This document shows positions 8,941 to 50,103 of a DNA stretch of 64,000 nucleotides, one piece after another (the first letter of the stretch is position 1; the number at the start of each line of letters is the position of its first letter). The notes under the pieces were generated by a model. The model searched no databases. It was not told the DNA's origin and worked only from the letters and a program-made list of their open reading frames with translations. The translations under genes and the position numbers were made by a program. Source of the DNA: Parcubacteria group bacterium (GTDB taxonomy: Bacteria; Patescibacteriota; Patescibacteriia; UBA9934; GWF2-40-263); assembly GCA_013204395.1 (NCBI GenBank), contig JABMNZ010000003.1, forward strand, positions 13,570-77,569. The letters are read 5' to 3'.

Positions 8941-9546
8941 TTAGACAGTTAAATTGTCTATCATCACAACTTTTTCCCCATTTAAGATGGAGAGTAAGAA
9001 TCGATCCGCCACCTGACGTCTGTCAAGAAACTCATCTTTTGGCATTAATGTGTAGTTTATCTCGTAAGGAATCTCTTCTTCAAACTGCGTAATCATCTTT
9101 TCAAGATCAGCCTGCTTCAGGCTTCCTACAATCAGAATATCTGTTTCAATATCAATGGCGTCAACAAAACGACCAGTAAACGCAAAGTAGTCAACAGTCC
9201 CCTTTTCCTGAATAACTTGGACAAAATTCTTCTTCAGTAAAATCTGCACCTTCTGAAAAAGAGAACGTAGATCATCAAAAAGGATAAACTCTGTGTTCAC
9301 CTGATAGTATTTCTTCTTTTCTGATAACCTGGTAGATTCCTTTGTTTTGCTCTTTTTTTCAGTAATTAAACCCAATTCAATAAGATTCGCGAGTTCTCGT
9401 CTCACGGAATTAAGCTGCGCATCGATCCTACGAGTAAGTTCCCGAACAAAAAAAGATTCATCCGGATGCTGAAGAAACAGTGCCATCAGGCGAGCACGAG
9501 TCTTCGAGCCAAACATCTGCTCAATTTTAAATGTATTTTTGATCAT
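8941..9546 (-). CDS. Winged-helix (ArsR-like) transcriptional regulator with an uncharacterized C-terminal domain
   Basis: RARLMALFLQHPDESFFVRELTRRIDAQLNSVRRELANLIELGLI is a winged HTH. The likely start is the internal MIKNTF, because the longer ORF (to 9726) overlaps the divergent gene. Confidence 0.5.
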   Translation of the reverse strand: MIKNTFKIEQMFGSKTRARLMALFLQHPDESFFVRELTRRIDAQLNSVRRELANLIELGLITEKKSKTKESTRLSEKKKYYQVNTEFILFDDLRSLFQKVQILLKKNFVQVIQEKGTVDYFAFTGRFVDAIDIETDILIVGSLKQADLEKMITQFEEEIPYEINYTLMPKDEFLDRRQVADRFLLSILNGEKVVMIDNLTV

Positions 9547-11815
9547 ATGCCTATCGGTTGCACCTCCACCCTTTCCGGGTATAATGTACACAAATGGTAA
9601 ATGGAGGGCAAATGAATACCACATGAATATCAAAGCATCGAGATACGAACCCACGAGCCCAGAAGAAAAGATTCGTGGCACATCAGTCCTACTTCCGGTC
9701 TCTGATCGGGGAGGTTTTGTGTTCATGGTGGCCTACACAAAAAAGGAAAACGACGACACAGAGCTTCTGCTGGAAACTCTTATTGATCAAACACATCGCC
9801 TGGCAAGCTCATTTGGGAAAGAGTCAAATCCTCAACATCGCTTTGAACAATTTCTTGGCGCGTTGAATGAGACTCTTTCAGAAAATGTACGTGAGGGGCG
9901 TTGGTCTGTTCCGATTGATCAATTGCACGCAATGGTTGGCATTATATCAGGTGGCCAAATGTTCCTCTCAGGAACAGGAGAGCTCACGGCTCTTTTTCTT
10001 CACAAGAAACCCTCACAAAGATATCAGATTTTTAATCTCTTTCGTGGAATACAAACAGAACAATCTTTACCAACATGGGAAAAGCCGTTTGCTGTAGTCC
10101 TTGACGGAGATTTACATAACGGAGATGTCTTCTGTGTTTCAGACAAAGATCTTCAAACAACCATCGAACCAGACGAGCTTAATGGAATCCTCTCATCTCT
10201 CCCCCCTGTAAGTGCCGTTGAAAAAATTCGACAATACTTTTCTCATAAGGAAGCATTGCTTCTAGTGGTCATTAAAATGGATGATCAAACAAACAACAGC
10301 TACGCCGCATCCACACATGCTGTTACTAGAGCAGACAAATCTGTTGATGAACTCATGGACACACAGGCAACAACAGACAGGTTTCTTGAAGATCAAAGTC
10401 CAAGCATCTCAACCGCCATACGCCGTGTAACACAATGGATCAAGGTTAAAACACAATCAAAATCAAGAGTTCTCAGAGACATAAACACCAACGGATCATT
10501 TGCAACAACCCTGCGTAGAATTGGTCGTTCTGCACTCCGTGTGCTTCTATTTTTGGCAAAACGCTCAATGAAACATGCAAAACAGGCATTTCATGCTCTC
10601 AGAAAAAAGGAGACTCGTGATCACATAAAACGACAGGTTCTCTCAGGAGGTGGCGCAAAAAACCGCGTTCAATCAATTCTTCATTCAACAAAACAAATTC
10701 CACGATCAACACAGTTTCTTGTTATTGGAATAATTGCCGCAGTGATCATTCTCGCCTTTGGTGTCACAACCATATCCAAATCTCAGGCACGTTCTGCCGA
10801 GGAAGATCTTTACCAAAAAAGTCTTGCCACCATCGAAGACACCATCGAGCGCGCATCAAGTGCAGTTATCTATAAGGATGAAGATCAGGCGCGCACACTC
10901 TTTCTCAATGCCCAAACCCTTATAGAAAATCTCCCAATCAACACACCTGAACGTGCGGAAAAATCGGTTGAGCTTATTACAGACATTCAATCAGCCATGG
11001 ATGACATTAGACATCTTGTCACGATCCCAAACCCTCCACTGCTCGCAGACTTGGCCACAGTGACAGATGGCGTATTTGGAAATGCCATTGTTCAAACCTC
11101 AAACTCACTTTACACATTCGCTTCCGATGGACGCGTCTACACACTAAACAGATCACAAAAAACTTTCGAGGCGATCTCTGAGACGACAGAATCAGGAAGT
11201 GTTGCGAGGGAAGTCACGCAAGAAGATGATAAAATTTATCTCTTGGACACCATTGGTGAAATCTATAGTGTCACCTCCGGTGAGGTAAACAGTGCGGGGC
11301 TTATTGATACTAGCTGGGTAGACTTACAAGCTTACGCCGACCGACTCTATCTTCTGCGACCATCCTTAAACGGCCAAGAGGGTCAGGTAGTAAGATACAC
11401 TCGAAATGGTAGCGACTTTACATCTGAAAGCAACTGGATCACTTCTCGCACAGTCTCATTTGATAACGCCGTTTCCTTGACTATCGATGGAACGGTGTAC
11501 GTACTCATGAAAAATGGCTCTATTTCACGATTCACTAGCGGAAGTGAAGATGGTTGGAGTGCTGGAACCGTTGAGCCACGCATAACAAATGCGACCGATA
11601 TTTGGACAGGGCCTGATTCTTCCTACATCTATGTTCTTGAACCAGACTCTCAAAGACTCATCGTTTTTGATAAAGCGTCTGGAGAATTCCTGGTTCAATA
11701 CTCTTCAAGCGCTTTCACAAATCTTTCAGATTTCACCGTCGACGAATCTGACTACACCATTTATCTTCTATCTGGCTCAAAGCTCTACAGCATTGCCACC
11801 TCACATATACAATAA
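9539..11815 (+). CDS. Large membrane-anchored hypothetical protein with a C-terminal beta-propeller-like repeat region
   Basis: 758 aa with a single TM segment (FLVIGIIAAVIILAFGV) in the middle. The C-terminal third has recurrent YLL/YVL strands (DKIYLLDTIGEIYSV, DRLYLLRPS, YIYVLEP, YTIYLLSG). The true start may lie downstream of 9539. Confidence 0.5.
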   Translation: MIICLSVAPPPFPGIMYTNGKWRANEYHMNIKASRYEPTSPEEKIRGTSVLLPVSDRGGFVFMVAYTKKENDDTELLLETLIDQTHRLASSFGKESNPQHRFEQFLGALNETLSENVREGRWSVPIDQLHAMVGIISGGQMFLSGTGELTALFLHKKPSQRYQIFNLFRGIQTEQSLPTWEKPFAVVLDGDLHNGDVFCVSDKDLQTTIEPDELNGILSSLPPVSAVEKIRQYFSHKEALLLVVIKMDDQTNNSYAASTHAVTRADKSVDELMDTQATTDRFLEDQSPSISTAIRRVTQWIKVKTQSKSRVLRDINTNGSFATTLRRIGRSALRVLLFLAKRSMKHAKQAFHALRKKETRDHIKRQVLSGGGAKNRVQSILHSTKQIPRSTQFLVIGIIAAVIILAFGVTTISKSQARSAEEDLYQKSLATIEDTIERASSAVIYKDEDQARTLFLNAQTLIENLPINTPERAEKSVELITDIQSAMDDIRHLVTIPNPPLLADLATVTDGVFGNAIVQTSNSLYTFASDGRVYTLNRSQKTFEAISETTESGSVAREVTQEDDKIYLLDTIGEIYSVTSGEVNSAGLIDTSWVDLQAYADRLYLLRPSLNGQEGQVVRYTRNGSDFTSESNWITSRTVSFDNAVSLTIDGTVYVLMKNGSISRFTSGSEDGWSAGTVEPRITNATDIWTGPDSSYIYVLEPDSQRLIVFDKASGEFLVQYSSSAFTNLSDFTVDESDYTIYLLSGSKLYSIATSHIQ

Positions 11816-13253: not shown

Positions 13254-13421
13254 AAAAAATATTCGACCTTTAATTAAAAACTGCAGACTCGCGCCGCAGT
13301 AGAAAAAAGGTCGAAACCTTTTACCTCGACGGGACTTATGCTCGGAAGCAACCCGTTGTCTACGGCAAATCTTTAGTTCGATGAGATAATAAAGGATCCG
13401 ACGGGGCATGTCAAGATAAGA

Positions 13422-13459
13422 AAAAGCAGCCTGCGTCAAGGCTGCGCGTTGAGAGCTAA
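13422..13459 (-). terminator. Stop codon plus rho-independent terminator (copy 1 of a perfect 38-bp direct repeat)
   Basis: On the minus strand it reads TAGctctcaacgcgcagcc-ttgacgca-ggctgcttttt. It is identical to 14056-14093 and terminates ORF 13456..14046. Confidence 0.7.
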
Positions 13460-14046
13460 CTCTCCTGGCGATCAACGTTGGACACCGTCACAATCTCACC
13501 AGACAGAAAGCATTGCGCGGCGGCCGTACCTCCTCTGAATGGGCTACGAACACCATTCCCGACCCAGTGACCAGCGAAGAAGCTTCCACTTGGACAGCAC
13601 TCCGACCCCATGCAACCGACGAAACCCTGCTGCACCTGCGTAACCATCCCCATGTCGAAGTCCTTAGGGAGCTGGCCCGGAATGTAGCAACTCACGGGGT
13701 CTCCCGGGAAGATGGCATCGCCGCAGTAGGAGCAGACAATCGCCTCCTTGAAGTACTCTGAATGAGCACACAAGATGCACTCCTTCCGCAAAAAACGATG
13801 AACCCAGAGTGGCAGCCACGCCTGCCACAACTTGAACGTGGGCCTACTCTCGTTCAACTTCCGATCGCCCAACATCAGATTCTCGAGCTGGTGCACCCTG
13901 TGGTTACATCCTGCCGTGAGAAACGGTTGCTCACCGTCCTTGGCCACCACCCTGAATGAAAGTGGTGGCGGGCGCCTCACTACCGGAATCAATGAAACCT
14001 GTTCTTCTGCCATGGGTACTCTCCTAGATAAACGAGTGCCAAACAA
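13456..14046 (-). CDS. GC-rich Cys-rich hypothetical protein (inserted cassette)
   Basis: 196 aa. It is the longest ORF spanning the whole insert, and its TAG stop is the first 3 nt of the duplicated terminator. It uses CTG/GCC/CGC-type codons, unlike its neighbours, and has many Cys (CILCAH, CSYCGD, CMGSECC). No homologue was recognised. Confidence 0.45.
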   Translation of the reverse strand: MFGTRLSRRVPMAEEQVSLIPVVRRPPPLSFRVVAKDGEQPFLTAGCNHRVHQLENLMLGDRKLNESRPTFKLWQAWLPLWVHRFLRKECILCAHSEYFKEAIVCSYCGDAIFPGDPVSCYIPGQLPKDFDMGMVTQVQQGFVGCMGSECCPSGSFFAGHWVGNGVRSPFRGGTAAAQCFLSGEIVTVSNVDRQES

Positions 14047-14055
14047 TCATGAAAT

Positions 14056-14093
14056 AAAAAGCAGCCTGCGTCAAGGCTGCGCGTTGAGAGCTA
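14056..14093 (-). terminator. Stop codon plus rho-independent terminator (copy 2 of the 38-bp direct repeat), terminating the 14091..14720 gene
   Basis: Same 38-mer as 13422-13459, followed on the minus strand by ttttatttc. Confidence 0.7.
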
Positions 14094-14720
14094 GATGTTG
14101 CTCAGACTTCCCCGGCCGGCTTCTTGCCTCTTGGTACGCACCTCGTAGTACGTCATGAAGGCGAGTGTCAGCGAGATGGAGATGATCCCGCGAATCACGT
14201 AGATGGTCGCGAGAAGATTCCCTTCGTGTAGCGATGGAACGAGTCCAACACCGTGAGCTGCCAGGACCAGCAGCCAAGCGGTGAACGATTCGGTGTTCCG
14301 CTTTTCTTTGATCATGGTGTGGTACATGGGGATGGTTCCCGCCTCTATGAGCACCTGTGCGAACAGGCTTGAATGCCAGAGATCACCAGAGATGACCGCG
14401 TAGGCCACCCCAAGCCCTGCCGCCAGCAGGTAGTACTTTTCCCAGGGACGAAATCGCAGTGTGCGATCTCCCCACACCAGGATCGAGATGATCACGATCA
14501 GCACCACGAGCAGGTCAACCACGTTGTTGACCCCACTGGTGATGTCCCAGTCTTCCTGAAGCAGGTAGCTCAGCAAGCTCCCGCCAACGCCGACCAGGAA
14601 CAGAATCCACATCGATAGCGTTGGAGTGATCTCCTTACGCCAGATCTGATAGACATACCGCAGGGCAAAGATGAGCATGATGCCCACCACAACCCAGGCA
14701 CAGATCTCTTTTAGATGCAT
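14091..14720 (-). CDS. Polytopic membrane protein, hypothetical
   Basis: 209 aa with about 6 predicted TM helices. No family recognised. Confidence 0.5.
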   Translation of the reverse strand: MHLKEICAWVVVGIMLIFALRYVYQIWRKEITPTLSMWILFLVGVGGSLLSYLLQEDWDITSGVNNVVDLLVVLIVIISILVWGDRTLRFRPWEKYYLLAAGLGVAYAVISGDLWHSSLFAQVLIEAGTIPMYHTMIKEKRNTESFTAWLLVLAAHGVGLVPSLHEGNLLATIYVIRGIISISLTLAFMTYYEVRTKRQEAGRGSLSNI

Positions 14721-20640: not shown

Positions 20641-20722
20641 CAGGTTTGTACAGATTTTTGCGACGTTGTTTCATTGACATGACCTCTCTCCTATGGCTTA
20701 CTTCCCTCGGAATGGAGAAAAG

Positions 20723-22162
20723 ATGAAACCCAACCCAAGAGACCGAGCCTTCCTCATGGCCCTGGATTCGATGAATGATCCCCACCTCCCGTGGGGACTG
20801 CGATTCTCCATTTTGCAGGACGATATTCCGGAAGGATACTTCGTCCGAAATGGTCACAGCGAATTCATGCGCCATTTCTGGGCAACGCTCTCACTCGCAC
20901 TCCCTGGCTCTGCACTGGAAATGCGTCTATTTGAGAAGCTCTCGCTGCCAAACATGGGTGCAGTTCCAACCTGGATCTCCGTGTGCGGACCCACGAGCTG
21001 GCCGGTGTTCTGGGTACACGTCATCCTGCGCAGCGATGCGCGGGGAGGAATTCACACCCTGGCCGTGCAGCGTCTACGCACCGTGACCGGAGGTACCGCC
21101 GAGCTTTGCACCGCCGCAACAGAACTCGCCAGACAAGACGGCAACGAGCAGCTCGTCGCACGACTGCGCACTGAGGCCATAGAAGTCGCAACAGACTGGT
21201 GGGAATGGAAGTTGATCATCGGCATGGAAACGGACGTGAGCGCGGATGCCCGCGTCAAAGCCCTCCAGCAACTTCGAGAGCTTCCAGTGGAGCGTGACGG
21301 GCTCGAACCATCCCTCAGCACAGCCGATCCAGAAGTCAGGCTGATCGTGATCGATCGTCTGCTCGAGACCTTCCCCGAGCGACCGGACCTCTGGCGGAGG
21401 CGATTCCTGACGGTTAGTCCGCCTGATGAACGCTACCAATGCTGGATCAAGTTCCTGTCGGTGACCCCCCCAGCCCATGAGCTGACAACCGTTCTGTTCC
21501 ACGTCTGGAACAACAAGCCAGAGCGCGCACGGTGCCTGGAGGCCATCGAACACCTCGATGCACAATGCCCTGCGTGGATCTATGCGCACTCTGCCAGCTA
21601 CGGAGCGCCCCACGATGACCCCAAGCTTCACTCCATCAGAGAGGTGATCTGGCAACGGATCTTCGCCACGGCACAGTCCTGCCATGACTGGTGCCAGTTG
21701 ACCAGGTTCATGAGAAGGCGCCACGAACAAGGCCACCCTCTCGTGAACGAAGCTTTCGAGAAGGCCCTAGATCTGGCCGAAAACTTCGAAGAGCTCTCGG
21801 ACGTGTACAGCCTCTGCCTGCATGAAGTGGCAGATGGCCATCATCGGCGAACCGAACACGACCCAGCGCGCGCACAGGTCATCCAAGGACTCCTTGTTCG
21901 GATGGAAGAGATTGGAGCCTTTTGGGACTACTGGAACGGACATCATCTACTGATGTCCGACAGGCTCTCCAGGATCGTTTGCTTGGCCAGCACCCCGTCA
22001 CAGATGGGGTTGGTCTACAACAGGCACTTCCAACTGCCTTACCAACGTGATGACAATCGAGAGCTCTACGACGAGCTTCTGCGACGCATGCACGCTGCTG
22101 GGCCCTCGTTGGTCACCAGCTTCCTTCCCAAACCAGCAACCGAGGCTCAACCCCGAACCTAA
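20723..22162 (+). CDS. GC-rich hypothetical protein
   Basis: The start was trimmed to MKPNPRDRAF with a ggagaaaag RBS. It is about 480 aa, helical, and rich in Arg/Leu/Trp with Leu-rich repeat-like segments. Codon usage is distinct from its neighbours. No family recognised. Confidence 0.5.
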   Translation: MKPNPRDRAFLMALDSMNDPHLPWGLRFSILQDDIPEGYFVRNGHSEFMRHFWATLSLALPGSALEMRLFEKLSLPNMGAVPTWISVCGPTSWPVFWVHVILRSDARGGIHTLAVQRLRTVTGGTAELCTAATELARQDGNEQLVARLRTEAIEVATDWWEWKLIIGMETDVSADARVKALQQLRELPVERDGLEPSLSTADPEVRLIVIDRLLETFPERPDLWRRRFLTVSPPDERYQCWIKFLSVTPPAHELTTVLFHVWNNKPERARCLEAIEHLDAQCPAWIYAHSASYGAPHDDPKLHSIREVIWQRIFATAQSCHDWCQLTRFMRRRHEQGHPLVNEAFEKALDLAENFEELSDVYSLCLHEVADGHHRRTEHDPARAQVIQGLLVRMEEIGAFWDYWNGHHLLMSDRLSRIVCLASTPSQMGLVYNRHFQLPYQRDDNRELYDELLRRMHAAGPSLVTSFLPKPATEAQPRT

Positions 22163-22212: not shown

Positions 22213-22280
22213 TACAAAAAAATCACGGGCTCGATGCCCATGATTTTTCCTTCACCACCCCCACCTCCCTGGGTCCACCC

Positions 22281-22360
22281 CGGCGACTCAGACAGCGGAA
22301 CAACTTTGAGTCGGCAATATGCGACCGATCTCACAAGTTCGTTCCGATGGCTGAGGTCGC
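22281..22360. repeat. Palindromic MITE/REP-like element, copy A
   Basis: ggcgactcagacagcGGAACAACTTTGAGTCGGCAATATGCGACCGATCTCACAAGTTCGTTCCgatggctgaggtcgcc. The core is 85-95% identical to copies at 28086, 29268, 31476 and 37928, and it folds as a long imperfect hairpin. Confidence 0.8.
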
Positions 22361-22384
22361 CCAATCATAGAGAGAAAGTCAGTC

Positions 22385-25248: not shown

Positions 25249-26316
25249 CTACTCTTCCCAAGGAAGTCCCGTTCGTCCAAAATGTCCGTATGTTGCTGTC
25301 GATTGATACACTGGTTTAAGAAGATCGAGCCTCTCAACAATCGCCTCGGGCCTAAAATCAAATTGCTGAGTAATCAGTTTAGTGAGATCTCCGGCGGAGC
25401 CGGACCCGGCTCCGCCGGGCATTTTTGCCCCCTTAGACTTCACACCAATACCAGAGGCATGGATATGCACGGGCTCAGCACGCCCCATGGAATACACCAA
25501 GTTAACCATGGCGGCTGATGCCAACTCTTGATCCACTATATAACGCGCTGCATAGCGAGCCATGTAAGCCCCTGCGCGATCCACCTTCCCAGGATTTTTT
25601 CCTGAAAATGAGCTGCCACCATGAGGAATTAACCCCCCATAAGTATCTACATTCGACTTGCGTCCATTCGCTCCTGAGTCCGCCTTGAATCCCGCCTCAG
25701 TAAATGAACCAATTGGATTGATAAGTAATTGAGTTCCATCTTCTCCCACAACAGGAATAAGCAAACGTTCCAAAAGTGCAGTCTGCACATCTTTTTCTGC
25801 AACACTCACTTGATGACTGGCACACACCGTGACCCCAGTAACTTTCTCACGCTCCATCACCACCTGAACTTTGCCATCTGGTTTGAGCCAAGAGAACATA
25901 GGATCTCCGCGACGCAGATCATCGAGTCTTCGCGCCAAAGCGTGTGCGTACACCACAGCGCGTGGCAAACGCTCGCGCGTTTCACTCGTAGCGTAACCAT
26001 TAATGATCATGTTGTCCGTTGCGCCGTTTTTCACGCGCTTCATTTCTTCGGACTGAGTCTCAATGTTTACGAAGACTTCTATGTCATCGTTGTAACCAAT
26101 GTCTTTGTAAATCTTCTGAGCAAGAGCTCCAAGATCAAAATCCGCTGTAGACGTCACCTCCCCACCTATCATCATCATGCCATGGCTTCCCATCACATTG
26201 AGATCCACCTGCGCCTGAGGGTCTCGACGCAAATACTCGTCCACAATGGCATCAGCGATTTGATCGCAAACTTTGTCTGGATGTCCCTGTGTAACTGATT
26301 CAACGGTCTTTTTCAT
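25249..26316 (-). CDS. metK: S-adenosylmethionine synthetase (bacterial type)
   Basis: ESVTQGHPDKVCDQIAD, GGGAFSGK-like GGSSFSGKNPGKVDRAGAYMARY, and ATYGHFGR C-terminal signatures. It carries an extra roughly 10-aa GGAGSGSAG insertion encoded by the 28-bp palindrome at 25391-25418. Confidence 0.9.
   Translation of the reverse strand: MKKTVESVTQGHPDKVCDQIADAIVDEYLRRDPQAQVDLNVMGSHGMMMIGGEVTSTADFDLGALAQKIYKDIGYNDDIEVFVNIETQSEEMKRVKNGATDNMIINGYATSETRERLPRAVVYAHALARRLDDLRRGDPMFSWLKPDGKVQVVMEREKVTGVTVCASHQVSVAEKDVQTALLERLLIPVVGEDGTQLLINPIGSFTEAGFKADSGANGRKSNVDTYGGLIPHGGSSFSGKNPGKVDRAGAYMARYAARYIVDQELASAAMVNLVYSMGRAEPVHIHASGIGVKSKGAKMPGGAGSGSAGDLTKLITQQFDFRPEAIVERLDLLKPVYQSTATYGHFGRTGLPWEE
25391..25418. 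repeat. Perfect 13-bp inverted repeat with a 2-bp spacer (ccggcggagccgg ac ccggctccgccgg) inside metK
   Basis: Exact palindrome. Its 14-nt half-site recurs at 24573-24586 and 24654-24667. Confidence 0.75.
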
Positions 26317-26410
26317 AGCGACCGCAGGTTATCAAAATCAGGCCTCTGAATCAACGGATAAGCTGTGCGGGACATGTTGACAAGTAATAAACAAAGGAGT
26401 CAAATATCGA

Positions 26411-27007
26411 TTGCATTCCTCCTGCGACATGGAAAGGCCATTGAACGTGACGAATTCCGAAGCTGCTCCCCCATTCCTGACTAGAACCGAAGCCTTCGAC
26501 CGCTCGGAGTACGAACCCTTCTACCTGGTGATTGGCATCATCTGCTTTACCATGGGCATCGCAGCCTTGCTGCAAGTTGGACTATTCACAGGTACAACCA
26601 ACCTGATCAAGTGGGCAACAGGTATCAGTGCACTTGTGAGCGCGGTTCTCCTGCTGAGCAAGGCTGTCTGGTCCTGGTACACCGGCAAACACCTGGCTTA
26701 CAAGATCTTCGTCTTACTCTGCCAAGAGAAAGATCTGCTTGGACAGGGCAACATCCTCCAAGCGTCACTCGATCAAATCGTGATGCTTCGAAAGGTACTG
26801 AGCAAGCACCAAACGAACATGACATACGAACAGAACATGCACTTGCTCGGCGAAGTCACTCTCTTCGAGGTTGAGTGCCAAGTCATCAGGGCAAAGCTCC
26901 ACGCAGAGCAAGCCGCCCGGCTACAACAGGCATTCAAGGCAAGTAGACACGACCCACCTTGGGTGAACTTCACTGACACGGCCAAACAGGCATCTGTGAG
27001 CGTCTAG
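26411..27007 (+). CDS. GC-rich small membrane protein, paralogue 1 of 3
   Basis: 2-3 TM helices followed by a helical C-terminus LLGQGNILQASLDQIVMLRKVL...AKLHAEQAARLQQAFKA. It is similar to the 27108 ORF (LLKRGDALLMQQRSLVAQERVL...AQLEAQMARH...LLRQAFKAAG). The start may be the MERPLN at 26429. Confidence 0.5.
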   Translation: MHSSCDMERPLNVTNSEAAPPFLTRTEAFDRSEYEPFYLVIGIICFTMGIAALLQVGLFTGTTNLIKWATGISALVSAVLLLSKAVWSWYTGKHLAYKIFVLLCQEKDLLGQGNILQASLDQIVMLRKVLSKHQTNMTYEQNMHLLGEVTLFEVECQVIRAKLHAEQAARLQQAFKASRHDPPWVNFTDTAKQASVSV

Positions 27008-27013
27008 CTCACC

Positions 27014-27042
27014 ACGACCCCGACACGGAGGGTCTTTTTTCT
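27014..27042 (+). terminator. Rho-independent terminator
   Basis: gaccc-cgacacgga-gggtc followed by ttttttc. Confidence 0.7.
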
Positions 27043-27107
27043 TTGACAAATTAAGCCCATGAGAGTGAAGTGCCCGCGACGCACCTAAACGCGGCAGAAA
27101 GGCCACT

Positions 27108-27647
27108 ATGTCTGAGAGTCTCCCCCTGCAGTCCTTCACCACCTTCACCTCCGAAACAGAGATGAAGGCCCGTTACAACTGGGACTTCTTGATGTTTGCC
27201 GCGCTCATGCCACTGCTCTCAGGTCTGTTCTACGCGACAGCCAGAGACACTGGAAGCTTCAACTCGGAGATCCTCCTCATCTCCATTCCGTTGATGGCCA
27301 TCCCGTTCTTCTTGGCGGCAGCGCTGTGGGTTTTCTTGCGAGGAGACCATCATCAGTACAGCACGTTCGTCGAACTGTGCCAGCCTGACAATCTCCTGAA
27401 AAGAGGTGATGCACTGCTCATGCAGCAGAGAAGTCTCGTGGCACAAGAGAGGGTCTTGACCCTGCTGGAAGAAGGCTACGGCCCCAGTCAAGAGTTGACT
27501 GAAGCACGTGCTCAACTGGAAGCACAGATGGCCCGCCACGCAACTCGCGTCACGGAACTCGCTCGTCAGCAGGACTATCTCCTGCGACAAGCGTTCAAAG
27601 CAGCTGGCAAGAACCCACGGTTCCTGAGAGAGCCAACGCCAACGTGA
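27108..27647 (+). CDS. GC-rich small membrane protein, paralogue 2
   Basis: 179 aa with TM helices in the N-terminal half. The C-terminal helical domain is homologous to the 26411 ORF. It is preceded by a TTGACA box at 27043 and ggcagaaagg 8 nt before the ATG. Confidence 0.5.
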   Translation: MSESLPLQSFTTFTSETEMKARYNWDFLMFAALMPLLSGLFYATARDTGSFNSEILLISIPLMAIPFFLAAALWVFLRGDHHQYSTFVELCQPDNLLKRGDALLMQQRSLVAQERVLTLLEEGYGPSQELTEARAQLEAQMARHATRVTELARQQDYLLRQAFKAAGKNPRFLREPTPT

Positions 27648-27704
27648 ACACCTGGTCACAAGCCTGACCAACACTGACCCCGAACAGACACAGAAAGGCA
27701 CCCC

Positions 27705-27971
27705 ATGTCCGAACAGGTAATAGACGCAGCCACACTCCGCACCGCCTTCATGAAGTCCCTCAGGAACTCCCTGGTGGTAGCGCTGATCATCGCTGCGGGA
27801 ATGGTCTACCTGAAACTCACCTACTCGCCCACAGAGAACCAGGAGGCCTATGGAATCACCATGGGCTCCGGAGGCTTGTTCCTGACCATCGTCACTCTTC
27901 ACGCGCTCGGAAACTGCTTCTTGTACTGGACTCACCCAGTACGAAAGGGATCCATCCCGTCTTCTGAGTGA
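27705..27971 (+). CDS. GC-rich small 2-TM membrane protein, paralogue 3 (short)
   Basis: 88 aa with two TM helices. It has the same acagaaagg...ATG upstream context and terminator type as its neighbours. Confidence 0.4.
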   Translation: MSEQVIDAATLRTAFMKSLRNSLVVALIIAAGMVYLKLTYSPTENQEAYGITMGSGGLFLTIVTLHALGNCFLYWTHPVRKGSIPSSE

Positions 27972-27996
27972 GACGAACTCCTCGCTCAACACACCT

Positions 27997-28022
27997 GACC
28001 CCCATACGGAGGGTCTTTTTTC
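27997..28022 (+). terminator. Rho-independent terminator
   Basis: gaccccc-atacgga-gggtc followed by tttttttc, nearly the same hairpin as at 27016. Confidence 0.7.
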
Positions 28023-28085
28023 TTATATAGAACATCTACAACCCCAACCCACCAAACAAAACGTCGACCCACCACGGGCCACCCA

Positions 28086-28146
28086 AGAGGAATGAGCGTC
28101 GACACAACTTTGAGTCGGCAACACGCGACCGATCTCACAAGTTCGT
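28086..28146. repeat. Palindromic MITE/REP-like element, copy B
   Basis: gcgtcgacACAACTTTGAGTCGGCAACACGCGACCGATCTCACAAGTTCGTGCCgacgatc. Confidence 0.75.
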
Positions 28147-28204
28147 GCCGACGATCAGTTCCTCCAAAGCCTTCACATCGACTTATCCCCACCACACCCC
28201 TTGC

Positions 28205-28246
28205 GTTCGGTTTTTGTTCGGTTCATAATACGAACATAAAGCGAAC
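28205..28246. promoter_or_regulatory. Candidate LexA operator: phased GTTC/GAAC tetrads with 11-bp periodicity forming an imperfect 42-bp palindrome, 10 bp upstream of the lexA start
   Basis: GTTCggtttttGTTCgGTTCataatacGAACataaagcGAAC. It contains GTTC-N7-GTTC (alphaproteobacterial-type SOS box architecture) and its inverse, centred on a dyad axis. Confidence 0.5.
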
Positions 28247-28255
28247 AGGAAATTT

Positions 28256-28870
28256 ATGTCGAACATAACCAAAAAACAAGCAGAGGTGCTCGCGATCATC
28301 CGCACGCACCTTGAAGACGAGGGCTATGCCCCATCCTACCGAGAGATAGCAGACGCCCTAGGCCTCTCCTCCCCAGCCACTGTCCACGCGCATGTGCAAG
28401 CGCTGGCAGAAAAAGGTCTCATCGCCACCGGTGATGATGGGAGAGCGCGCTCAATCGAGCTAGTCGATGAAGAAGTTAAACAGCCATCAGTAATGCTACC
28501 CCTCATGGGTATCATCACAGCAGGAGAACCTATCGAGGCCGTGGAAGATAATGAAGCCATGGCTGTGCCTTCAGACTTTGTTCTAGACAGCGCCAACTCA
28601 TTTGTCCTTAGAGTAAAAGGACGCTCCATGATAGAAGATGGAATACTAGATGGCGACTACGTTGTCATCGAGAGAAATCCATCACCTCGTGACGGAGAGG
28701 TAGTGGTAGCCTTACTAGATAATGCCTTTGCCACGCTGAAACGATTTTACAGAGAACGCAATCGTATCAGACTTCAACCTGCAAACAGCTCCATGGAACC
28801 AATCTTCGTCCAAGACTGCATTATCCAAGGAGTTGTCCGAGCTGTCATAAGAAAATTTCAACCTGTGTAG
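28256..28870 (+). CDS. lexA: LexA repressor
   Basis: N-terminal wHTH (YREIADALGLSSPATVHAHVQALAEKGLI), an Ala-Gly cleavage site (ITAGEP), and the S24 Ser/Lys dyad region (VKGRSMIEDGI...VVALLDNAFATLKRF). Confidence 0.9.
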   Translation: MSNITKKQAEVLAIIRTHLEDEGYAPSYREIADALGLSSPATVHAHVQALAEKGLIATGDDGRARSIELVDEEVKQPSVMLPLMGIITAGEPIEAVEDNEAMAVPSDFVLDSANSFVLRVKGRSMIEDGILDGDYVVIERNPSPRDGEVVVALLDNAFATLKRFYRERNRIRLQPANSSMEPIFVQDCIIQGVVRAVIRKFQPV

Positions 28871-29190: not shown

Positions 29191-29267
29191 GATCTCGACC
29201 ATTATTCTTAACCCCAAGCATCTTCTTCACCCCTATCCCCCTCCACCACCAACATGGGTGTAACACC

Positions 29268-29347
29268 TCGACTCAGACATTGGGACAACTTTGAGTCGGC
29301 AATATGCGCCCGATCTCACAAGTTCGTACCAATGGCTGCAGTCGCCG
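29268..29347. repeat. Palindromic MITE/REP-like element, copy C
   Basis: cgactcagacattGGGACAACTTTGAGTCGGCAATATGCGCCCGATCTCACAAGTTCGTACCaatggctgcagtcgccgac. It has the same outer arms as copy A. Confidence 0.8.
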
Positions 29348-29583: not shown

Positions 29584-29841
29584 ATGATGGCTATGCACGA
29601 GCTTCTTAATGACCCTGTGGACGTGGAGGTATCGTTTTCAAATAACCGTGTCGTTCCGCGTTCCATCAGGTGGAACCAAAAAGATTACAAAATTGAAACA
29701 GTAAACCTAGTTCACACGGCACGAGAGGGACACAAAAAAATGTTCTACTTCTCAGTCTCAGACCTAAATAACTATTTCAAACTAAAACTAGATCCAGAAA
29801 ATTTAGATTGGCGCCTAGTCGAGCTTTATACAGATGGATAA
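29584..29841 (+). CDS. Small AT-rich hypothetical protein in the lexA-dinB locus
   Basis: 85 aa (MMAMHELLNDPVDVEVSFSNNRVVPRSIRWNQKDYKIE...). It sits between lexA and dinB. A YolD/UmuD-accessory-like role is possible but not demonstrable from the sequence. Confidence 0.4.
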   Translation: MMAMHELLNDPVDVEVSFSNNRVVPRSIRWNQKDYKIETVNLVHTAREGHKKMFYFSVSDLNNYFKLKLDPENLDWRLVELYTDG

Positions 29842-29863: not shown

Positions 29864-30376
29864 CTAGTCGGCTTGTACCTTAAGTTCAAGGTACCTCACC
29901 AGGTCGAGTTCGTAGTGCCGATCAGATCCCTCAACGAGCTTGAAGCCGAGATTCTCGTACAGCGCGCGAGCTGCTTCGTGCCAGGGCTCAGAAACGAGCC
30001 GCACCACCTTGATGAGTGGGGACACTCCTACAGCCTGGTCGAGCAAATTCTCCATGAGTGCACGGCCAAGTCCTCGACCATCACCACGGAAGTCTTCGTC
30101 CACCAACACGTACTCAACATGACCAACACCCTTGCGCCAGTCGTAGGTGATGCAGAGCATGGCCACACCGACCACACGCCCTGTTTCCTGCTGACGGATC
30201 ACAGAGATGCGCGTGCGTGCGCGTTCCATAAGCCTACGCTGGTGCAAGACATCTTGGTACGGCAGAAGTCCTGATTGAAGTAGTTCATCGCCGCGCTCGT
30301 TTAGAAACGTAATGCAGTCACGGTAATCGTCCAGCCGAGCCAAATCGATCCTGAACAAGGTGCTGTTAAAGGGCAT
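29864..30376 (-). CDS. GNAT family N-acetyltransferase
   Basis: VAMLCITYDW...VLVDEDFRGDGRGLGRALMENLLDQA is the acetyl-CoA-binding Q/RxxGxG/A motif. Confidence 0.75.
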   Translation of the reverse strand: MPFNSTLFRIDLARLDDYRDCITFLNERGDELLQSGLLPYQDVLHQRRLMERARTRISVIRQQETGRVVGVAMLCITYDWRKGVGHVEYVLVDEDFRGDGRGLGRALMENLLDQAVGVSPLIKVVRLVSEPWHEAARALYENLGFKLVEGSDRHYELDLVRYLELKVQAD

Positions 30377-30427
30377 GTGTGCCTCCTAGAAAAAGACTCT
30401 ACCATAGAATCTATCATCGTCAAACTT

Positions 30428-31777
30428 ATGGAGCGCATCATTCTCCACATTGATTTTAATTCCTACTTCGCCTCTGTTGAACAGCAGGCGAATCCCTTTT
30501 TACGTGGCAAACCCATCGGCATCACAGGAAAAAGCCAGGAGCGCTCTGTTGTCGCCACAGCCTCAATTGAAGCCAAAGCCCTTGGTGTTAAAACAGCCAT
30601 GAGTACATGGGAGGCAAAGAAGGTATGCCCAACAATCATCCTCTGGCCTGGTGATCCAGAAAAGTATTCAGACATCACATCTAGATTTAATCGAATCTTA
30701 AGTGAGTTCACACCAAACGTCTCTCAGTTCAGTGTGGACGAGAGTTTTTTAGATATTACAGACGAGGCTGAAGATTATTTCGGCGCAACCTGCCTTGCTC
30801 AAGCTTTGCGCGAGCGACTCAGAGAGGAGTTTGGAGATCACATCACCGCTTCCATAGGCATCGCCCCAAACAAGCTCATGGCCAAACTCGCCTGCGAGTC
30901 AGTCAAACCTAATGGACTAACGGTCGTTCGCAAAGACGACTTAATCGATTTCATCGACACGCGTGAACTTGATGACCTATGTGGAATCGGACATCGTATA
31001 AAGCATCGCCTGAATGCTCTTGGCGTTGAAACTTTTAAACAACTCCGTGAATTCCCCATCAACGATCTCGTCGATGAATTCAAATCTTACGGCACTTGGC
31101 TACATGCAGCAGCTCATGGACACGACTCATCCGCGGTCGTCTCATCCACGCAAAAAGGCATTCGCACCATGCACTCGACTGGCGTGAAGTCTTATGGACA
31201 CTCATACACCCTCCCTCAAAACACTCACGACCTCCTTGTCATAAAACGATACCTACTAGGCCTGGCAGACAAAGTTGCATGGCGCATGCGCCGCGATAAA
31301 ACCCTAGCCCGTCGCGTAAGCGTCTTTGTTCGTTTTGGCGACTTCACTGGACACGGCGAGCAACGCACATTCAACGAACCAACAGCCAACGGACTAAAAC
31401 TATTCCAAATAGCCTGGCGCATCCTCTCCCCCCATCTCTCCCCTCACTCTCACCCCCAACCCACAGGCCGAGCACGCGACACAGACATTGGTACAACTTT
31501 GAGTCGGCCTACCAGTGACCGATCTCAAAGTTCGTACCAAGGGCTGGGGTCGCCCCCCAATGACCTAGTCCGCCTAGTAGGCCTATCTACATCCCTATTA
31601 TCCTCAGGTCCTGAACAACCACCTCTATTTAAAAAAGACCGAAAGATGATTTCCGTCTTCTCTTCACTCGACAAGCTTCAACATCGATATGGTCCCGGTG
31701 TCTGGCAACGCGCTTCAACCATGCCAATCGAATTCAAATCCCGATCTAGTGGATTCAATTATGACCACGAGGTTTAA
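30428..31777 (+). CDS. dinB: DNA polymerase IV (Y-family), with an in-frame palindromic-element insertion in the little-finger region
   Basis: ILHIDFNSYFASVEQ, SIDE-like VDESFLDIT, and the C-terminal LVRLVGLSTSLL...PPLF little-finger motifs. Residues around SPHLSPHSHPQPTGRARDTDIGTTLSRPTSDRSQSSYQGLGSP are encoded by repeat copy D, so the protein is roughly 80-100 aa longer than typical DinB. The start was trimmed to MERIIL. Confidence 0.8.
   Translation: MERIILHIDFNSYFASVEQQANPFLRGKPIGITGKSQERSVVATASIEAKALGVKTAMSTWEAKKVCPTIILWPGDPEKYSDITSRFNRILSEFTPNVSQFSVDESFLDITDEAEDYFGATCLAQALRERLREEFGDHITASIGIAPNKLMAKLACESVKPNGLTVVRKDDLIDFIDTRELDDLCGIGHRIKHRLNALGVETFKQLREFPINDLVDEFKSYGTWLHAAAHGHDSSAVVSSTQKGIRTMHSTGVKSYGHSYTLPQNTHDLLVIKRYLLGLADKVAWRMRRDKTLARRVSVFVRFGDFTGHGEQRTFNEPTANGLKLFQIAWRILSPHLSPHSHPQPTGRARDTDIGTTLSRPTSDRSQSSYQGLGSPPNDLVRLVGLSTSLLSSGPEQPPLFKKDRKMISVFSSLDKLQHRYGPGVWQRASTMPIEFKSRSSGFNYDHEV
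31476..31555. repeat. Palindromic MITE/REP-like element, copy D (inside the dinB coding sequence, frame preserved)
   Basis: gcgacacagacattGGTACAACTTTGAGTCGGCCTACCAGTGACCGATCTCAAAGTTCGTACCaagggctggggtcgcc. Confidence 0.8.
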
Positions 31778-36374: not shown

Positions 36375-37760
36375 CTACAGAGGAGCACAAGCCTTGCGCA
36401 ACTCTGCGTCCACACTCTTGAGATCGGGCCCACCGTCTGTGAGCTGGCGCATGAGGTGAACGTTTGCCAGGTGTACGTGCGGGAACACACTGGCACGAAC
36501 CTGGCGACTGAACCCGTAGTCTAGCAACTGGCCCGTCATCGGATCTGGACGAGTAAGTCGTCGGTGTATGGACTTGAGCTCGTCGTCCCAAGCTCTACAG
36601 CAAGAGTCTGAGACGGTTTGGCTTCGGTCCATGAGAATCGCCGTCTGCAACAAGAGCTCCTCAAGCTGCCAGTGGAGTTCCCGAAGCTTCATGCTGTGAT
36701 AGACACGAATGAGCACGTCCCGCGCGCGCAACATCACGGCAGCGGCGGCATCAGGAATTTCGCTTCGTGCCACTTTGGCAGCCTCAGCCATGATGGCGGC
36801 AACCTCACGAAGGTCACGCACGGTGTGCTTGATGGAACGATCAAACGGCTTGGTGACGACGGCTTCGAGCTTTGTCGCCACCGCTCCCAGACGTCCCGCT
36901 TCCTTGATGACCGTCCCGGTAGAACGTTCTTCAGAGGAACCTGCTCGCCTTGCATCAAACGGCAGAAGTCGATCGTCACCAAACAGTTTCCTGGACTGCA
37001 GGCGATGCAACTGGGAGTCAGCGATCTGGCGACACATCAACCGATGACGATCGATGTAGACCTCCAGGACCGCCTCACGAAAACTCATTCTTCGTGAAAT
37101 GCCGCGCACCCCCTGAATCCGCTTGGCGAGCTGAGTTTGCCCCGCGAAGATGATCAGTGGGATACGACCAGGATTGAACCTCCCGATCGAGTCTTTCAGC
37201 TCTCCGGCCTGAAGCACGCGGCGCAGAGCCTCTACCTTACGTTCGTCAATGACACGACCATGCCTGTCCAGCAGAGCGGCCGCAACCAGGACGTACTCCT
37301 GTTTTTCACCCTCACCAACCAGGTGAAGGGTCCATGATGTCTTGACCATCCAGTTGAAGGTGTCGTCCCAGGTACGAAGATCGGGAATCTCGATGCTCTT
37401 GCCGCGCACCTCAGCGTGGGCCATCCCTCGTCGAGCCGTGTAGACGGTCTTGTACGAGATGAAACACTGTTGCCCATATTCCAGAGGATCCTCGCCATTG
37501 AGGCGCTCTGAGACACTCAGGTTTCTGGACAAGATACGACCTGGGGCAAGCTCCGGAACATCCGCAAGAACGTCGGTGCCGCGAGCCGGTACCATGTAAA
37601 GACAGTGTGGAACCAGCTCAATGAGAGCAAAGTTCAAGACATTGAGGGGAGACTGTTTGCCCTCACCCTTTCTCCTAGTACGCAGAAGCCTGAAGTCACG
37701 AGTAATGACAACGGGCTCCATCGGATCCGGCATTTCAAACCGGCCTGTGGAATGAGCCAC
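36375..37760 (-). CDS. GC-rich hypothetical protein
   Basis: 461 aa, Arg/Leu-rich and predicted cytoplasmic. Codon usage is distinct from flanking genes. No family recognised. Its upstream region contains repeat copy E. Confidence 0.45.
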   Translation of the reverse strand: MAHSTGRFEMPDPMEPVVITRDFRLLRTRRKGEGKQSPLNVLNFALIELVPHCLYMVPARGTDVLADVPELAPGRILSRNLSVSERLNGEDPLEYGQQCFISYKTVYTARRGMAHAEVRGKSIEIPDLRTWDDTFNWMVKTSWTLHLVGEGEKQEYVLVAAALLDRHGRVIDERKVEALRRVLQAGELKDSIGRFNPGRIPLIIFAGQTQLAKRIQGVRGISRRMSFREAVLEVYIDRHRLMCRQIADSQLHRLQSRKLFGDDRLLPFDARRAGSSEERSTGTVIKEAGRLGAVATKLEAVVTKPFDRSIKHTVRDLREVAAIMAEAAKVARSEIPDAAAAVMLRARDVLIRVYHSMKLRELHWQLEELLLQTAILMDRSQTVSDSCCRAWDDELKSIHRRLTRPDPMTGQLLDYGFSRQVRASVFPHVHLANVHLMRQLTDGGPDLKSVDAELRKACAPL

Positions 37761-37927
37761 GATTCAGACCTCCTTTTCCAGTGCTTTTTCTCAATGAATC
37801 AGCCCTGCAAGATAATCAAATCCAACCACCTTGTCAACACTAATTTCCCCAAAAACAAAACAAAGGTCTCGACGACCTTTGTTTTGTTAACCCCCCCTCT
37901 CCACACCACCAGTCGTGGGTAAACCAC

Positions 37928-38006
37928 CGCGAACGAGCGTTGGGACAACTTTGAGTCGGCAATATGCGACCGATCTCACAAGTTTGTACCAGTGATCGGT
38001 TCGCCG
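37928..38006. repeat. Palindromic MITE/REP-like element, copy E
   Basis: cgcgaacgagcgttGGGACAACTTTGAGTCGGCAATATGCGACCGATCTCACAAGTTTGTACCagtgatcggttcgccg. Confidence 0.8.
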
Positions 38007-42526: not shown

Positions 42527-42970
42527 GTGGTCAGTACAGTGAGTGACCTCTCAGTTTTTCTCCTCAACCGACTCAAGGAAGATGACCGTCCGCAGACCAT
42601 CACCATGGAAGCAACTGCGGGCGAGAACGATGGTGTTCGTATCAGACTCCCGAATGACGACGAGCTCATCGAAGTGAAAGCCAGAACTGCAACACTGGAC
42701 GGAAGATCCGGAAGGCTCCCTTGGTACATCCTGGCCGACACCTATCTCAGAATGACTGGTGCACGTGTCGCCATGGAGCTCGCCAGAGCACGATCTGTCC
42801 AGCCCCCAATGCCATCAACCACCAGATCTTGGATCTTGCAAGACGGAACCACCACGGACTACAAGACCCCCAGCACCCACGAATGGTTCGCTGCTGACCA
42901 GAAGGTCGATCCGCCACCCAAAGGTGCTGTTCTGCGAATCACCTTCTCGTATCCAGGATACGGCAAGTAA
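42527..42970 (+). CDS. GC-rich small hypothetical protein
   Basis: 147 aa. It is preceded by gtttcattgaca (42466) and ggcagaaagg, and followed by a terminator at about 42990-43020. Codon usage is distinct from its neighbours. Confidence 0.4.
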   Translation: MVSTVSDLSVFLLNRLKEDDRPQTITMEATAGENDGVRIRLPNDDELIEVKARTATLDGRSGRLPWYILADTYLRMTGARVAMELARARSVQPPMPSTTRSWILQDGTTTDYKTPSTHEWFAADQKVDPPPKGAVLRITFSYPGYGK

Positions 42971-49680: not shown

Positions 49681-50103
49681 ATGTGTCGAGGGGTACTGAA
49701 GATGGATCCGGAACTGCTGATCGTGAAGCTCTGGCGTGAGTTCAAAGAAACCACGCTGGAGATGCTGAAGTTGCTGCTGCTGAAAGAACTCGTTGAGCGG
49801 GATGACGACTTCGTCGAAGTCACTGACCGCGCGAGTGCCATCCGTTGTGCCAAGGCCTACGACAGGGCCACAGCCAAGGTCGAAGCGATCCGCGCACGTC
49901 GTGGCTCCAAGACCCTGGTCATCCAGATCTTCGGCATCGCTGAGGAAATCGTCCACAGCGTTCTCTGCCACGAAGAGTTCTGCACCTGTCGTCCAGACGG
50001 CAAGCTGACATCCAGGAACAGCGAGGTGCGCGTCCGATTCGAACTCCCCTCACCTGGGCTCATCGCCGACTCCAGCTGCTTCAGCAGCTTCGTCATGGCC
50101 TAA
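49681..50103 (+). CDS. GC-rich small hypothetical protein
   Basis: About 130-140 aa, Cys-containing at the C-terminus (CHEEFCTCRPDGK). Its start may be MDPELL at 49702. It is followed by tandem terminators at 50160-50250. Confidence 0.4.
   Translation: MCRGVLKMDPELLIVKLWREFKETTLEMLKLLLLKELVERDDDFVEVTDRASAIRCAKAYDRATAKVEAIRARRGSKTLVIQIFGIAEEIVHSVLCHEEFCTCRPDGKLTSRNSEVRVRFELPSPGLIADSSCFSSFVMA

Follow-up and report, generated by a model that had tools for sequence, protein, structure and literature searches.

What do three small genes for membrane proteins do between metK and lexA in a reduced bacterial genome? The question is raised by a 64,000-nucleotide stretch of DNA from a Parcubacteria group bacterium (GenBank assembly GCA_013204395.1, contig JABMNZ010000003.1, positions 13,570 to 77,569 of the forward strand), referred to below as the window. 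The three open reading frames (ORFs), all on the plus strand and all hypothetical proteins in the public annotation, are ORF1 (26447-27007; 186 amino acids, aa; HQ488_00675), ORF2 (27108-27647; 179 aa; HQ488_00680) and ORF3 (27705-27971; 88 aa; HQ488_00685). An earlier interpretation made from the DNA letters, here called the sequence-only reading, had taken them for a tandemly amplified accessory cassette of three paralogues. We have compared LexA-anchored loci from 80 Patescibacteria species genomes, and our answer, offered tentatively and as something still short of probable, is that the genes, transcribed independently and coding for orphan membrane proteins, form an islet in an insertion hotspot, most likely with a role in biological conflict.

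The locus, which comes from a metagenome-assembled genome, is assigned to Candidatus Uhrbacteria. The left edge of the hotspot is metK, which encodes S-adenosylmethionine synthetase (25249-26316, minus strand), and the right edge is lexA (28256-28870, plus strand), both genes lying outside the islet. The minus-strand housekeeping surroundings described previously are therefore found on the left flank but not on the right. The metK orthologue of locus L001 has the Pfam S-AdoMet_synt N, M and C domains, and lexA orthologues have LexA_DNA_bind and Peptidase_S24. In 14 related loci of Uhrbacteria (those named for this adjacency are L006, L008-L011, L014, L016-L022, L024 and L025), metK and lexA are directly adjacent and divergently oriented, with 116-290 bp between them, and the wider gene order there is that of the window: DUF4015, PPIase, HC2, hyp, metK / lexA, hyp85, (GNAT), dinB ... 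uvrD. Other cargo is present in the gap of L007, L013 and L015, namely methyltransferase-like genes, an inositol monophosphatase and a 123-aa protein. Together, the 14 adjacent loci and the varied cargo indicate that the adjacency is ancestral, that the gap is a recurrent insertion site and that ORF1-3 were inserted there. As judged from sequence, the comparison shows positions 26377-28024 (1.6 kb) to be a lineage-specific accessory islet in a recombination or insertion hotspot. A search of relatives for the trio between metK and lexA, as had been proposed, thus met an empty gap in 14 related loci, and the genes are absent beyond five loci, in which their position is conserved. What stands of the amplified cassette is an insertion with one to three tandem copies, but not the amplification of three genes.

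ORF1 and ORF2 constitute a new orphan family with a very narrow distribution. Members were found in only five loci (the window and L001-L004), always in the metK-lexA gap and in one to three copies, and the four other loci come from the same sub-clade as the window, with LexA 87-94% and metK orthologues 84-93% identical to those of the window. L003 contains a single copy, directly upstream of lexA and with no other cargo, and in L004 a tandem of three copies precedes an ORF3 homologue. In L001, two copies are accompanied by a 505-aa gene, an SPFH protein and others, while the gap of L002 contains a homologue of ORF3, a 219-aa gene and, further downstream, one distant family copy. One member in L001 (9292-9912, plus strand; profile E = 2e-46) has been overlooked by the public gene call, which places a 156-aa ORF at 9358-9828 opposite to it. 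Searches with greater reach added little: a HMMER profile run against 1.84 billion representative proteins gave four hits, consisting of the two query proteins and two others, and word-indexed searches of 5.8 billion (5.8e9) clusters returned only the queries themselves. The profile of the eight-member family found no member in 80 lexA loci of other Patescibacteria, and no relatives were present in the JGI metagenome contigs that were scanned.

The relationship between ORF1 and ORF2 is distant (29% identity over 117 aa, BLASTP E = 9e-11), and family paralogues at 24-38% identity share architecture, motifs and length. The proteins consist of a short N-terminal motif (P-[PY]-[FY]-x-T-x-x-E-A), a hairpin of two transmembrane (TM) helices and a C-terminal domain of ~100 aa and three helices; one conserved block lies directly after TM2 (Y-x-x-F-x-x-L-C-x(4)-L-L-x-x-G) and another near the C-terminus (L-x(3)-Q-x(3)-L-x-x-A-F). 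ORF1 has an orthologue in the same position in L001 and L004 (37-39% identity), and the closest relative of ORF2 outside the window is the single-copy gene of L003 (29% identity, E = 3e-10). The AlphaFold2 model of ORF1, built from only four sequences, is all-helical (predicted local distance difference test score, pLDDT, 80.2; predicted template modelling score, pTM, 0.63), with helices at residues 13-20, 22-46 (TM), 53-79 (TM), 81-93, 97-119 and 127-165. The helix layout of the ORF2 model is the same (pLDDT 70.8), and both models agree with the earlier suggestion of N-terminal TM helices followed by a helical domain with conserved motifs. The loop between the TM helices is short and carries at most one positive charge, and lysine and arginine residues are found on both outer sides; from this distribution, a cytoplasmic location is predicted by the positive-inside rule for the helical domain and for both termini.

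ORF3 stands apart from the other two genes. It has no detectable similarity to ORF1 or ORF2 and has orthologues of its own (P0004, 84% identity; P0005, 52%), both inside the same hotspot, and hence is not the truncated relative that it had been thought to be; the supposed trio of paralogues is reduced to a pair. ORF3 is predicted to be a 2-TM hairpin with both ends inside (N-in/C-in), and it accompanies the ORF1/2 family in four of the five loci.

Comparison of close relatives reveals turnover within the islet. The alignment of L002 with the window covers metK, the ORF1 promoter and ~20 bases at the start of ORF1, and it resumes in the ORF2-ORF3 spacer; window positions 26468-27662, comprising ORF1 and ORF2, are absent, and the ORF3 homologue of L002 stands behind the ORF1 promoter. 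The core genes of L001 and L004 are 97-99% identical, yet one family gene has been replaced by the unrelated 505-aa gene, and the difference runs from just past the upstream stop codon to the point where the replaced gene has its stop codon and terminator. Between the same two loci, the synonymous divergence (dS) is 0.025 and 0.043 for two islet genes, compared to 0.24-0.32 for metK, lexA and dinB, which points to recent exchange of these two islet genes. The ratio of nonsynonymous to synonymous divergence (dN/dS) is 0.2-0.8 for the family and ORF3 genes (0.29 for ORF3 against L002), compared to 0.006-0.06 for metK, lexA and dinB. The islet genes are thus under purifying selection, as expected of real genes, albeit with proteins that evolve ~10 times faster than those of core genes.

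These data also bear on the possibility that the genes are young or decaying and have little or no function, either through de novo birth in the hotspot or through drift after acquisition. Frequent loss, a dN/dS of 0.8 in one close gene pair and the lack of homologues beyond the five loci in a set of ~15 billion proteins would all fit such an origin. However, architecture, motifs and length have been kept at 24-38% identity, dN/dS is 0.2-0.6 over long divergences, the AlphaFold2 models are confident from only four sequences, and promoters, ribosome-binding sites (RBSs) and terminators are conserved, so that we regard genes of this kind as very unlikely here.

The genes of the islet appear to be organized in two transcription units, one with promoter, ORF1 and terminator and the other with promoter, ORF2, ORF3 and terminator. 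The putative ORF1 promoter (26377-26405, plus strand) has a -35 element TTGACA (26377-26382), a 17-nt spacer and a -10-like TCAAAT (26400-26405), and the corresponding ORF2 site (27043-27071, plus strand) has TTGACA at 27043-27048, the same spacer length and TGAAGT at 27066-27071. Neither TTGACA site was called by a generic consensus promoter scan, owing to a -10 element of the form T(G/C)AA(A/G)T. The layout TTGACA-N17-TGAAAT recurs before family genes in L001, L002, L003 and L004, and its recurrence in four other genomes makes the ORF1 and ORF2 sites credible promoters. The ORF1 promoter region is conserved with L002 and L003, and window positions 27029-27072 are 91% identical to positions 2261-2304 of L002, which precede the family gene of that locus. 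TTGACA was not found before ORF3, and no promoter was seen between ORF2 and ORF3; the claim of a TTGACA promoter for each gene is accordingly retained for the first two genes and dropped for the third.

Terminators and RBSs are consistent with the same organization. Terminator 1 (27016-27043, plus strand), a GACCCC...GGGTC hairpin with a T-run, is the left copy of a 28-nt direct repeat and abuts the -35 element of ORF2, and terminator 2 (27997-28024, plus strand) is the right copy, identical at 25 of 28 positions. This combination of hairpin and T-run (GACCCCnnnACGGAGGGTCTTTTTTCTT) occurs at exactly two sites in the 64 kb, 27016 and 27997, with none expected from shuffled sequences, and the hairpins have folding energies of -9.1 and -11.1 kcal/mol. 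The L002 orthologue of ORF3 ends in the same terminator as terminator 2. There is no terminator 3' of ORF2, where the 57-nt spacer to ORF3 forms a weak hairpin without a T-run; ORF2 and ORF3 therefore look bicistronic and are probably one transcript, and only two of three near-identical terminators described earlier are present. An RBS of the type (A/G)GAAAGG precedes all three starts by 7-9 nt, in agreement with the ggcagaaagg-type context that had been noted, and is common to most family genes in other loci; the sites are GGAAAGG at 26431-26437 for ORF1 and AGAAAGG at 27096-27102 and 27692-27698 for ORF2 and ORF3 (all plus strand). While the coordinates and strand of the three ORFs were otherwise as first described, the start of ORF1 at 26411 was not upheld. 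The longest frame opens at TTG 26411 (26411-27007), but GTG 26447 is probably the start and TTG 26411 less likely; the GTG codon was adopted on the basis of the public annotation, the RBS 9 nt upstream and the N-termini of orthologues (MPPAPAPPFLTR...). An antisense ORF of 257 aa at 27219-27992 was dismissed as a shadow ORF of G+C-rich coding DNA, since conservation, dN/dS and the orientation of promoters, RBSs and terminators all favour the plus strand.

Hairpin and T-run terminators, GAAAGG RBSs and conserved promoters flank the genes in all five loci. In a further explanation, the gap would be a self-contained cassette array whose units are shuffled by recombination at terminator-promoter junctions. 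Each unit would be made up of a terminator-promoter junction, an RBS and an ORF, and units would be gained, lost or swapped at the junctions of hairpin, T-run and TTGACA. Such an array would act like an integron without an integrase and would diversify the membrane proteins of episymbiotic bacteria against phages or competitors. Several observations fit: the 28-nt repeats flank exactly ORF2 and ORF3, the gene swapped between L001 and L004 is located between junctions of this kind, and a 22-nt junction (AGGGTCTTTTTTCTTTGACAAT) shows 100% identity across lineages in which the synonymous sites of core genes have reached saturation. Terminator repeats of 41 nt, 98% identical to each other, at 13418-13458 and 14053-14093 (minus strand) flank a G+C-rich orphan ORF at 13456-14046 in a similar manner; each of these repeats opens at a TAG stop, and the two follow an unrelated G+C-rich membrane ORF (14091-14720). 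However, functional constraint on T-run and -35 element together with common descent could explain most of these observations. TTGACA -35 elements and the tail TTTTTTCTT, which is the usual terminator tail here, are general signals of this genome, and we consider shuffling of cassettes distinctly unlikely. The possibility that the terminator motif is a genome-wide repeat was discarded, with GGGTCTTTTT present only three times in the window.

A longer repeat is found between the islet and the lexA promoter. This hairpin element of ~107 nt (28059-28165) is one of five copies in the window, all on the plus strand (the others at 22255-22361, 29240-29346, 31448-31554 and 37900-38006), and copies are also present in L001 (5723-5828) and L004 (5494-5599). 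It has the core ACAACTTTGAGTCGGCAAYAYGCGACCGATCTCACAAGTT and compensatory base changes in the basal stem, and no Rfam family is matched by it. The intergenic sites differ in close relatives, so that it looks like a mobile element similar to miniature inverted-repeat transposable elements or repetitive extragenic palindromes, and it looks to be restricted to this sub-clade. The dinB gene (30377-31777) has an in-frame insertion of 39 aa (31436-31553) relative to its L004 orthologue, coinciding with a degenerate fifth copy of the repeat; the element thus seems to have inserted in a coding region with the frame kept. Of the Rfam families, only the ribosomal protein L10 leader (RF00557; 13266-13383, minus strand; 49.1 bits) exceeds its gathering score in the window.

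In base composition the islet clearly differs from its flanks, as the sequence-only reading had it. The G+C content at third codon positions (GC3) is 0.66, 0.67 and 0.73 in ORF1-3, compared to 0.41-0.47 in metK, lexA and other flanking genes, and these values lie at z = 6-8 relative to 50 other ORFs of the window. Within each of the five loci, islet GC3 is ~0.2 above that of the locus's own core genes, which is 0.43 or 0.60 depending on the group. Seven further ORFs of the window are GC3-rich (0.59-0.75, core ~0.42), at 13456-14046, 14091-14720, 20693-22162, 29864-30376, 36375-37760, 42527-42970 and 49681-50103. High GC3 is thus the mark of a class of lineage-specific genes in these genomes, and could be caused by GC-biased gene conversion at a recombination-prone site or by a codon class of low expression. 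Pfam searches with six of the seven ORFs gave no match for five and a sub-threshold AA_permease_2 match for 14091-14720. The ORF at 29864-30376 corresponds to an L001 gene annotated as an acetyltransferase (GNAT), and homologues of 36375-37760, which has a GGGTCTTTTT-type terminator at its end, adjoin uvrD in six other Uhrbacteria loci. A 608-nt permuted 'tmRNA*' called by ARAGORN at 20774-21381 (minus strand), inside the G+C-rich ORF 20693-22162, is probably a false positive, as there is no Rfam tmRNA match at this position.

The position next to lexA raises the question whether ORF1 and ORF2 are membrane proteins linked to the SOS response, such as cell-division inhibitors made upon DNA damage, which many bacteria encode beside lexA. 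Inhibitors of the YneA/SosA/ChiZ/DivS type are lineage-specific and divergent, co-localise with lexA and are best conserved directly after the TM segment (PMC6851548). The ORF1/2 family is always beside lexA or a few genes upstream of it, in L003 as its immediate upstream neighbour, and its best-conserved stretch likewise follows the TM region. The regulatory sequences, however, speak against such a link. The lexA promoter with its LexA operator (28198-28249, plus strand) contains the direct-repeat pairs GTTCG-N6-GTTCG and CGAAC-N6-CGAAC in opposite orientation and is conserved in 27 loci as CTTGCGTTCGGTTTTTGTTCGG-N(7-9)-ATACGAACAnAAAGCGAACA. Direct-repeat LexA motifs have been published, including those of a Patescibacteria study cited in PMC7739468, and the motifs as presented there agree with this operator. 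A position weight matrix was derived from 54 LexA half-operators, with true sites scoring 17-32 bits. The lexA operator gave the only strong hits in the 64-kb window (31.5 and 28.7 bits), while the family promoters of the five loci scored -7 to -13 bits. A weak match before ORF3 (9.6 bits) has no conserved counterpart in L002, the operator of lexA itself was the only one recovered by pattern searches, and no strong LexA site is present upstream of hyp85/dinB or of uvrD. SOS regulation of ORF1-3 or their homologues was consequently rejected. Moreover, the genes run in the direction of lexA from promoters of their own and hence do not share its operator; their products have two TM helices with a domain predicted to be cytoplasmic, in place of one TM helix with an extracellular C-terminus; and most Uhrbacteria have no gene in the gap. 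With no operator and mostly empty gaps, the SOS connection is unsupported and the hotspot offers the best explanation for the position next to lexA; SOS-linked proteins are, in our estimation, the least probable of the possibilities weighed here.

The surroundings of lexA hold two further features. A DnaA-box-like sequence, TTATCCACA, is conserved in most lexA loci of Uhrbacteria, 15-30 nt upstream of the -35 element of lexA (window 28184-28192, TTATCCCCA), and a partial TTATCC in opposite orientation lies beside metK at ~26354-26359. Between lexA and dinB, in the window as in many Patescibacteria loci, is the gene of an 85-aa protein of no assigned function (hyp85; 29584-29841), an arrangement which suggests that hyp85 may be a dedicated partner of the translesion polymerase.

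What function, then, would account for a family that turns over so rapidly? In the conflict role that we favour, ORF1 and ORF2 would be variants that share one function, differ in specificity and are expressed independently, and this function would be to stop incoming phages, toxins or foreign elements at the membrane, in the style of superinfection exclusion or immunity. Specificity variants are suggested by the tandem divergent paralogues with promoters of their own, by turnover and by the elevated dN/dS. The toxin/immunity or phage-exclusion type named by the sequence-only reading obtained no homology support from Pfam, NCBIfam, PHROG or PADLOC profiles or from phage and plasmid matches, and it is our most plausible guess from evolutionary behaviour alone.

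Several results weigh against a conflict role. No significant hit in Pfam, NCBIfam, PHROGs or PADLOC is common to the family members; tblastn against 50,697 GenBank phage records and PLSDB plasmids gave no match, nor did a scan of IMG/VR with the ORF3 family; and the neighbourhood to 5 kb contains no phage or toxin gene, no recombinase and no known defence gene. Sequence-profile searches of the PDB and Foldseek searches of the PDB and of viral BFVD models returned nothing better than E = 0.04; the fold would be novel at most with respect to these two model sets. The GC3 excess tracks the GC3 of the host and high GC3 is a marker of a gene class, by itself no proof of recent import. The few substitutions between close relatives show no consistent cluster, being located in the TM/loop half of one gene and in the cytoplasmic helices of another, and a dN/dS that is high but below 1 is equally expected from relaxed constraint. 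Clustering of substitutions in the external loop was seen in one gene pair and not in another, and no claim is made of it. Membership in SLATT, LemA-like or other Pfam and NCBIfam families was likewise discarded for want of hits, Pfam giving no SLATT hit at E <= 10 in the eight members. A PADLOC Drt1b/RTasTM match in the TM region of ORF1 (E = 8e-4) was taken as a chance match, since it is absent from the other seven members and there is no reverse transcriptase nearby.

The genes could also encode lineage-specific membrane scaffolds or regulators that serve an envelope or lipid process and evolve fast only through weak constraint, in a hotspot that would do no more than gather accessory genes related to membranes. 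The motifs after TM2 and at the C-terminus are kept in all paralogues, suggesting a common partner, dN/dS stays below 1, and the gap cargo of L001 and L004 is related to membranes (an inositol monophosphatase, an enzyme of the fatty-acid hydroxylase family, and an SPFH/Band 7 protein together with a small membrane protein). Set against this are a copy number of 0-3 among close relatives, with ORF1 and ORF2 both missing in L002, the absence of the family from nearly all Uhrbacteria, and a promoter for each paralogue, which means that they form no operon. We judge scaffolds or regulators unlikely, albeit worth keeping in mind.

A remnant of a phage or mobile element has also to be weighed, in the form of a holin, antiholin or exclusion module left at the metK-lexA gap. 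Class II holins and T4 Imm have the size and topology of ORF3, which at 88 aa has a predicted N-in/C-in 2-TM fold and a charged C-terminus. The composition differs from that of the host, and the 28-nt direct repeats around ORF2 and ORF3 would fit an inserted module. These repeats, however, are the terminators themselves, and no endolysin, integrase or structural gene is nearby. The best PHROG matches had E = 0.04-0.12, with no hit below 0.04, and the phage records and IMG/VR were blank, as noted. It is very doubtful that the islet is such a remnant.

If the conflict role is true, ORF1 and ORF2 would represent a new and very narrow family of exclusion or immunity membrane proteins in the Candidate Phyla Radiation, a group in which little is known of the genes for defence and for interaction with hosts. 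What the present work contributes is a family of orphan proteins and the documentation of a hotspot, but no mechanism. In this locus, a reduced genome offers a clean natural example of how genes are gained, lost and swapped within a tiny hotspot, displaying compact units of promoter, ORF and terminator together with near-identical terminator repeats.

Among known systems, flexible genomic islands resemble the islet in that core flanks are adjacent in relatives, content varies, composition deviates and synonymous divergence of the cargo is below that of the flanks, which indicates exchange. Unlike typical flexible islands, the islet measures only 1.6 kb, has no integrase, tRNA or transposase at the site, and carries promoters and terminators of its own, the terminators being near-identical repeats. 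Integron cassettes are promoterless ORFs with attC, served by intI and attI, whereas the islet units have their own promoters, their repeats are short terminator hairpins with T-runs rather than attC, and no recombinase is among the neighbours within ~5 kb. YneA, SosA, ChiZ and DivS are, like ORF1 and ORF2, small, lineage-specific and poorly conserved membrane proteins near lexA. Proteins of the YneA/SosA/ChiZ class, however, are typically encoded divergently from lexA and have a single TM helix with an extracellular tail, whereas ORF1 and ORF2 are co-directional with lexA, have their own promoter and terminator, and encode two TM helices with a predicted cytoplasmic domain; they also differ from SOS division inhibitors in having no LexA operator and in being absent from most of the lineage. 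PADLOC defence systems share neither a profile match nor partner genes with the islet, and phage holins and exclusion proteins are set apart from it, as the islet has no phage-family or viral-fold match and no prophage context. The SLATT 2-TM effectors come closer to ORF1 and ORF2 in their 2-TM hairpin, flanking helices and size of ~180 aa. The best NCBIfam match is nevertheless SLATT_1 at E = 0.73, in one of eight members, and the partners of SLATT proteins (SMODS/CD-NTase, SLOG, TIR, reverse transcriptase) are not near the islet, the neighbours being metK, lexA and unrelated cargo. Small superinfection-exclusion and immunity proteins, such as T4 Imm and tandem orphan immunity genes, are 2-TM proteins that evolve fast and are gained and lost. 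The islet differs from these systems by the lack of a prophage or toxin gene context and of sequence or fold similarity, and resembles T4 Imm and orphan immunity genes in its small 2-TM proteins and its tandem, divergent and independently expressed paralogues.

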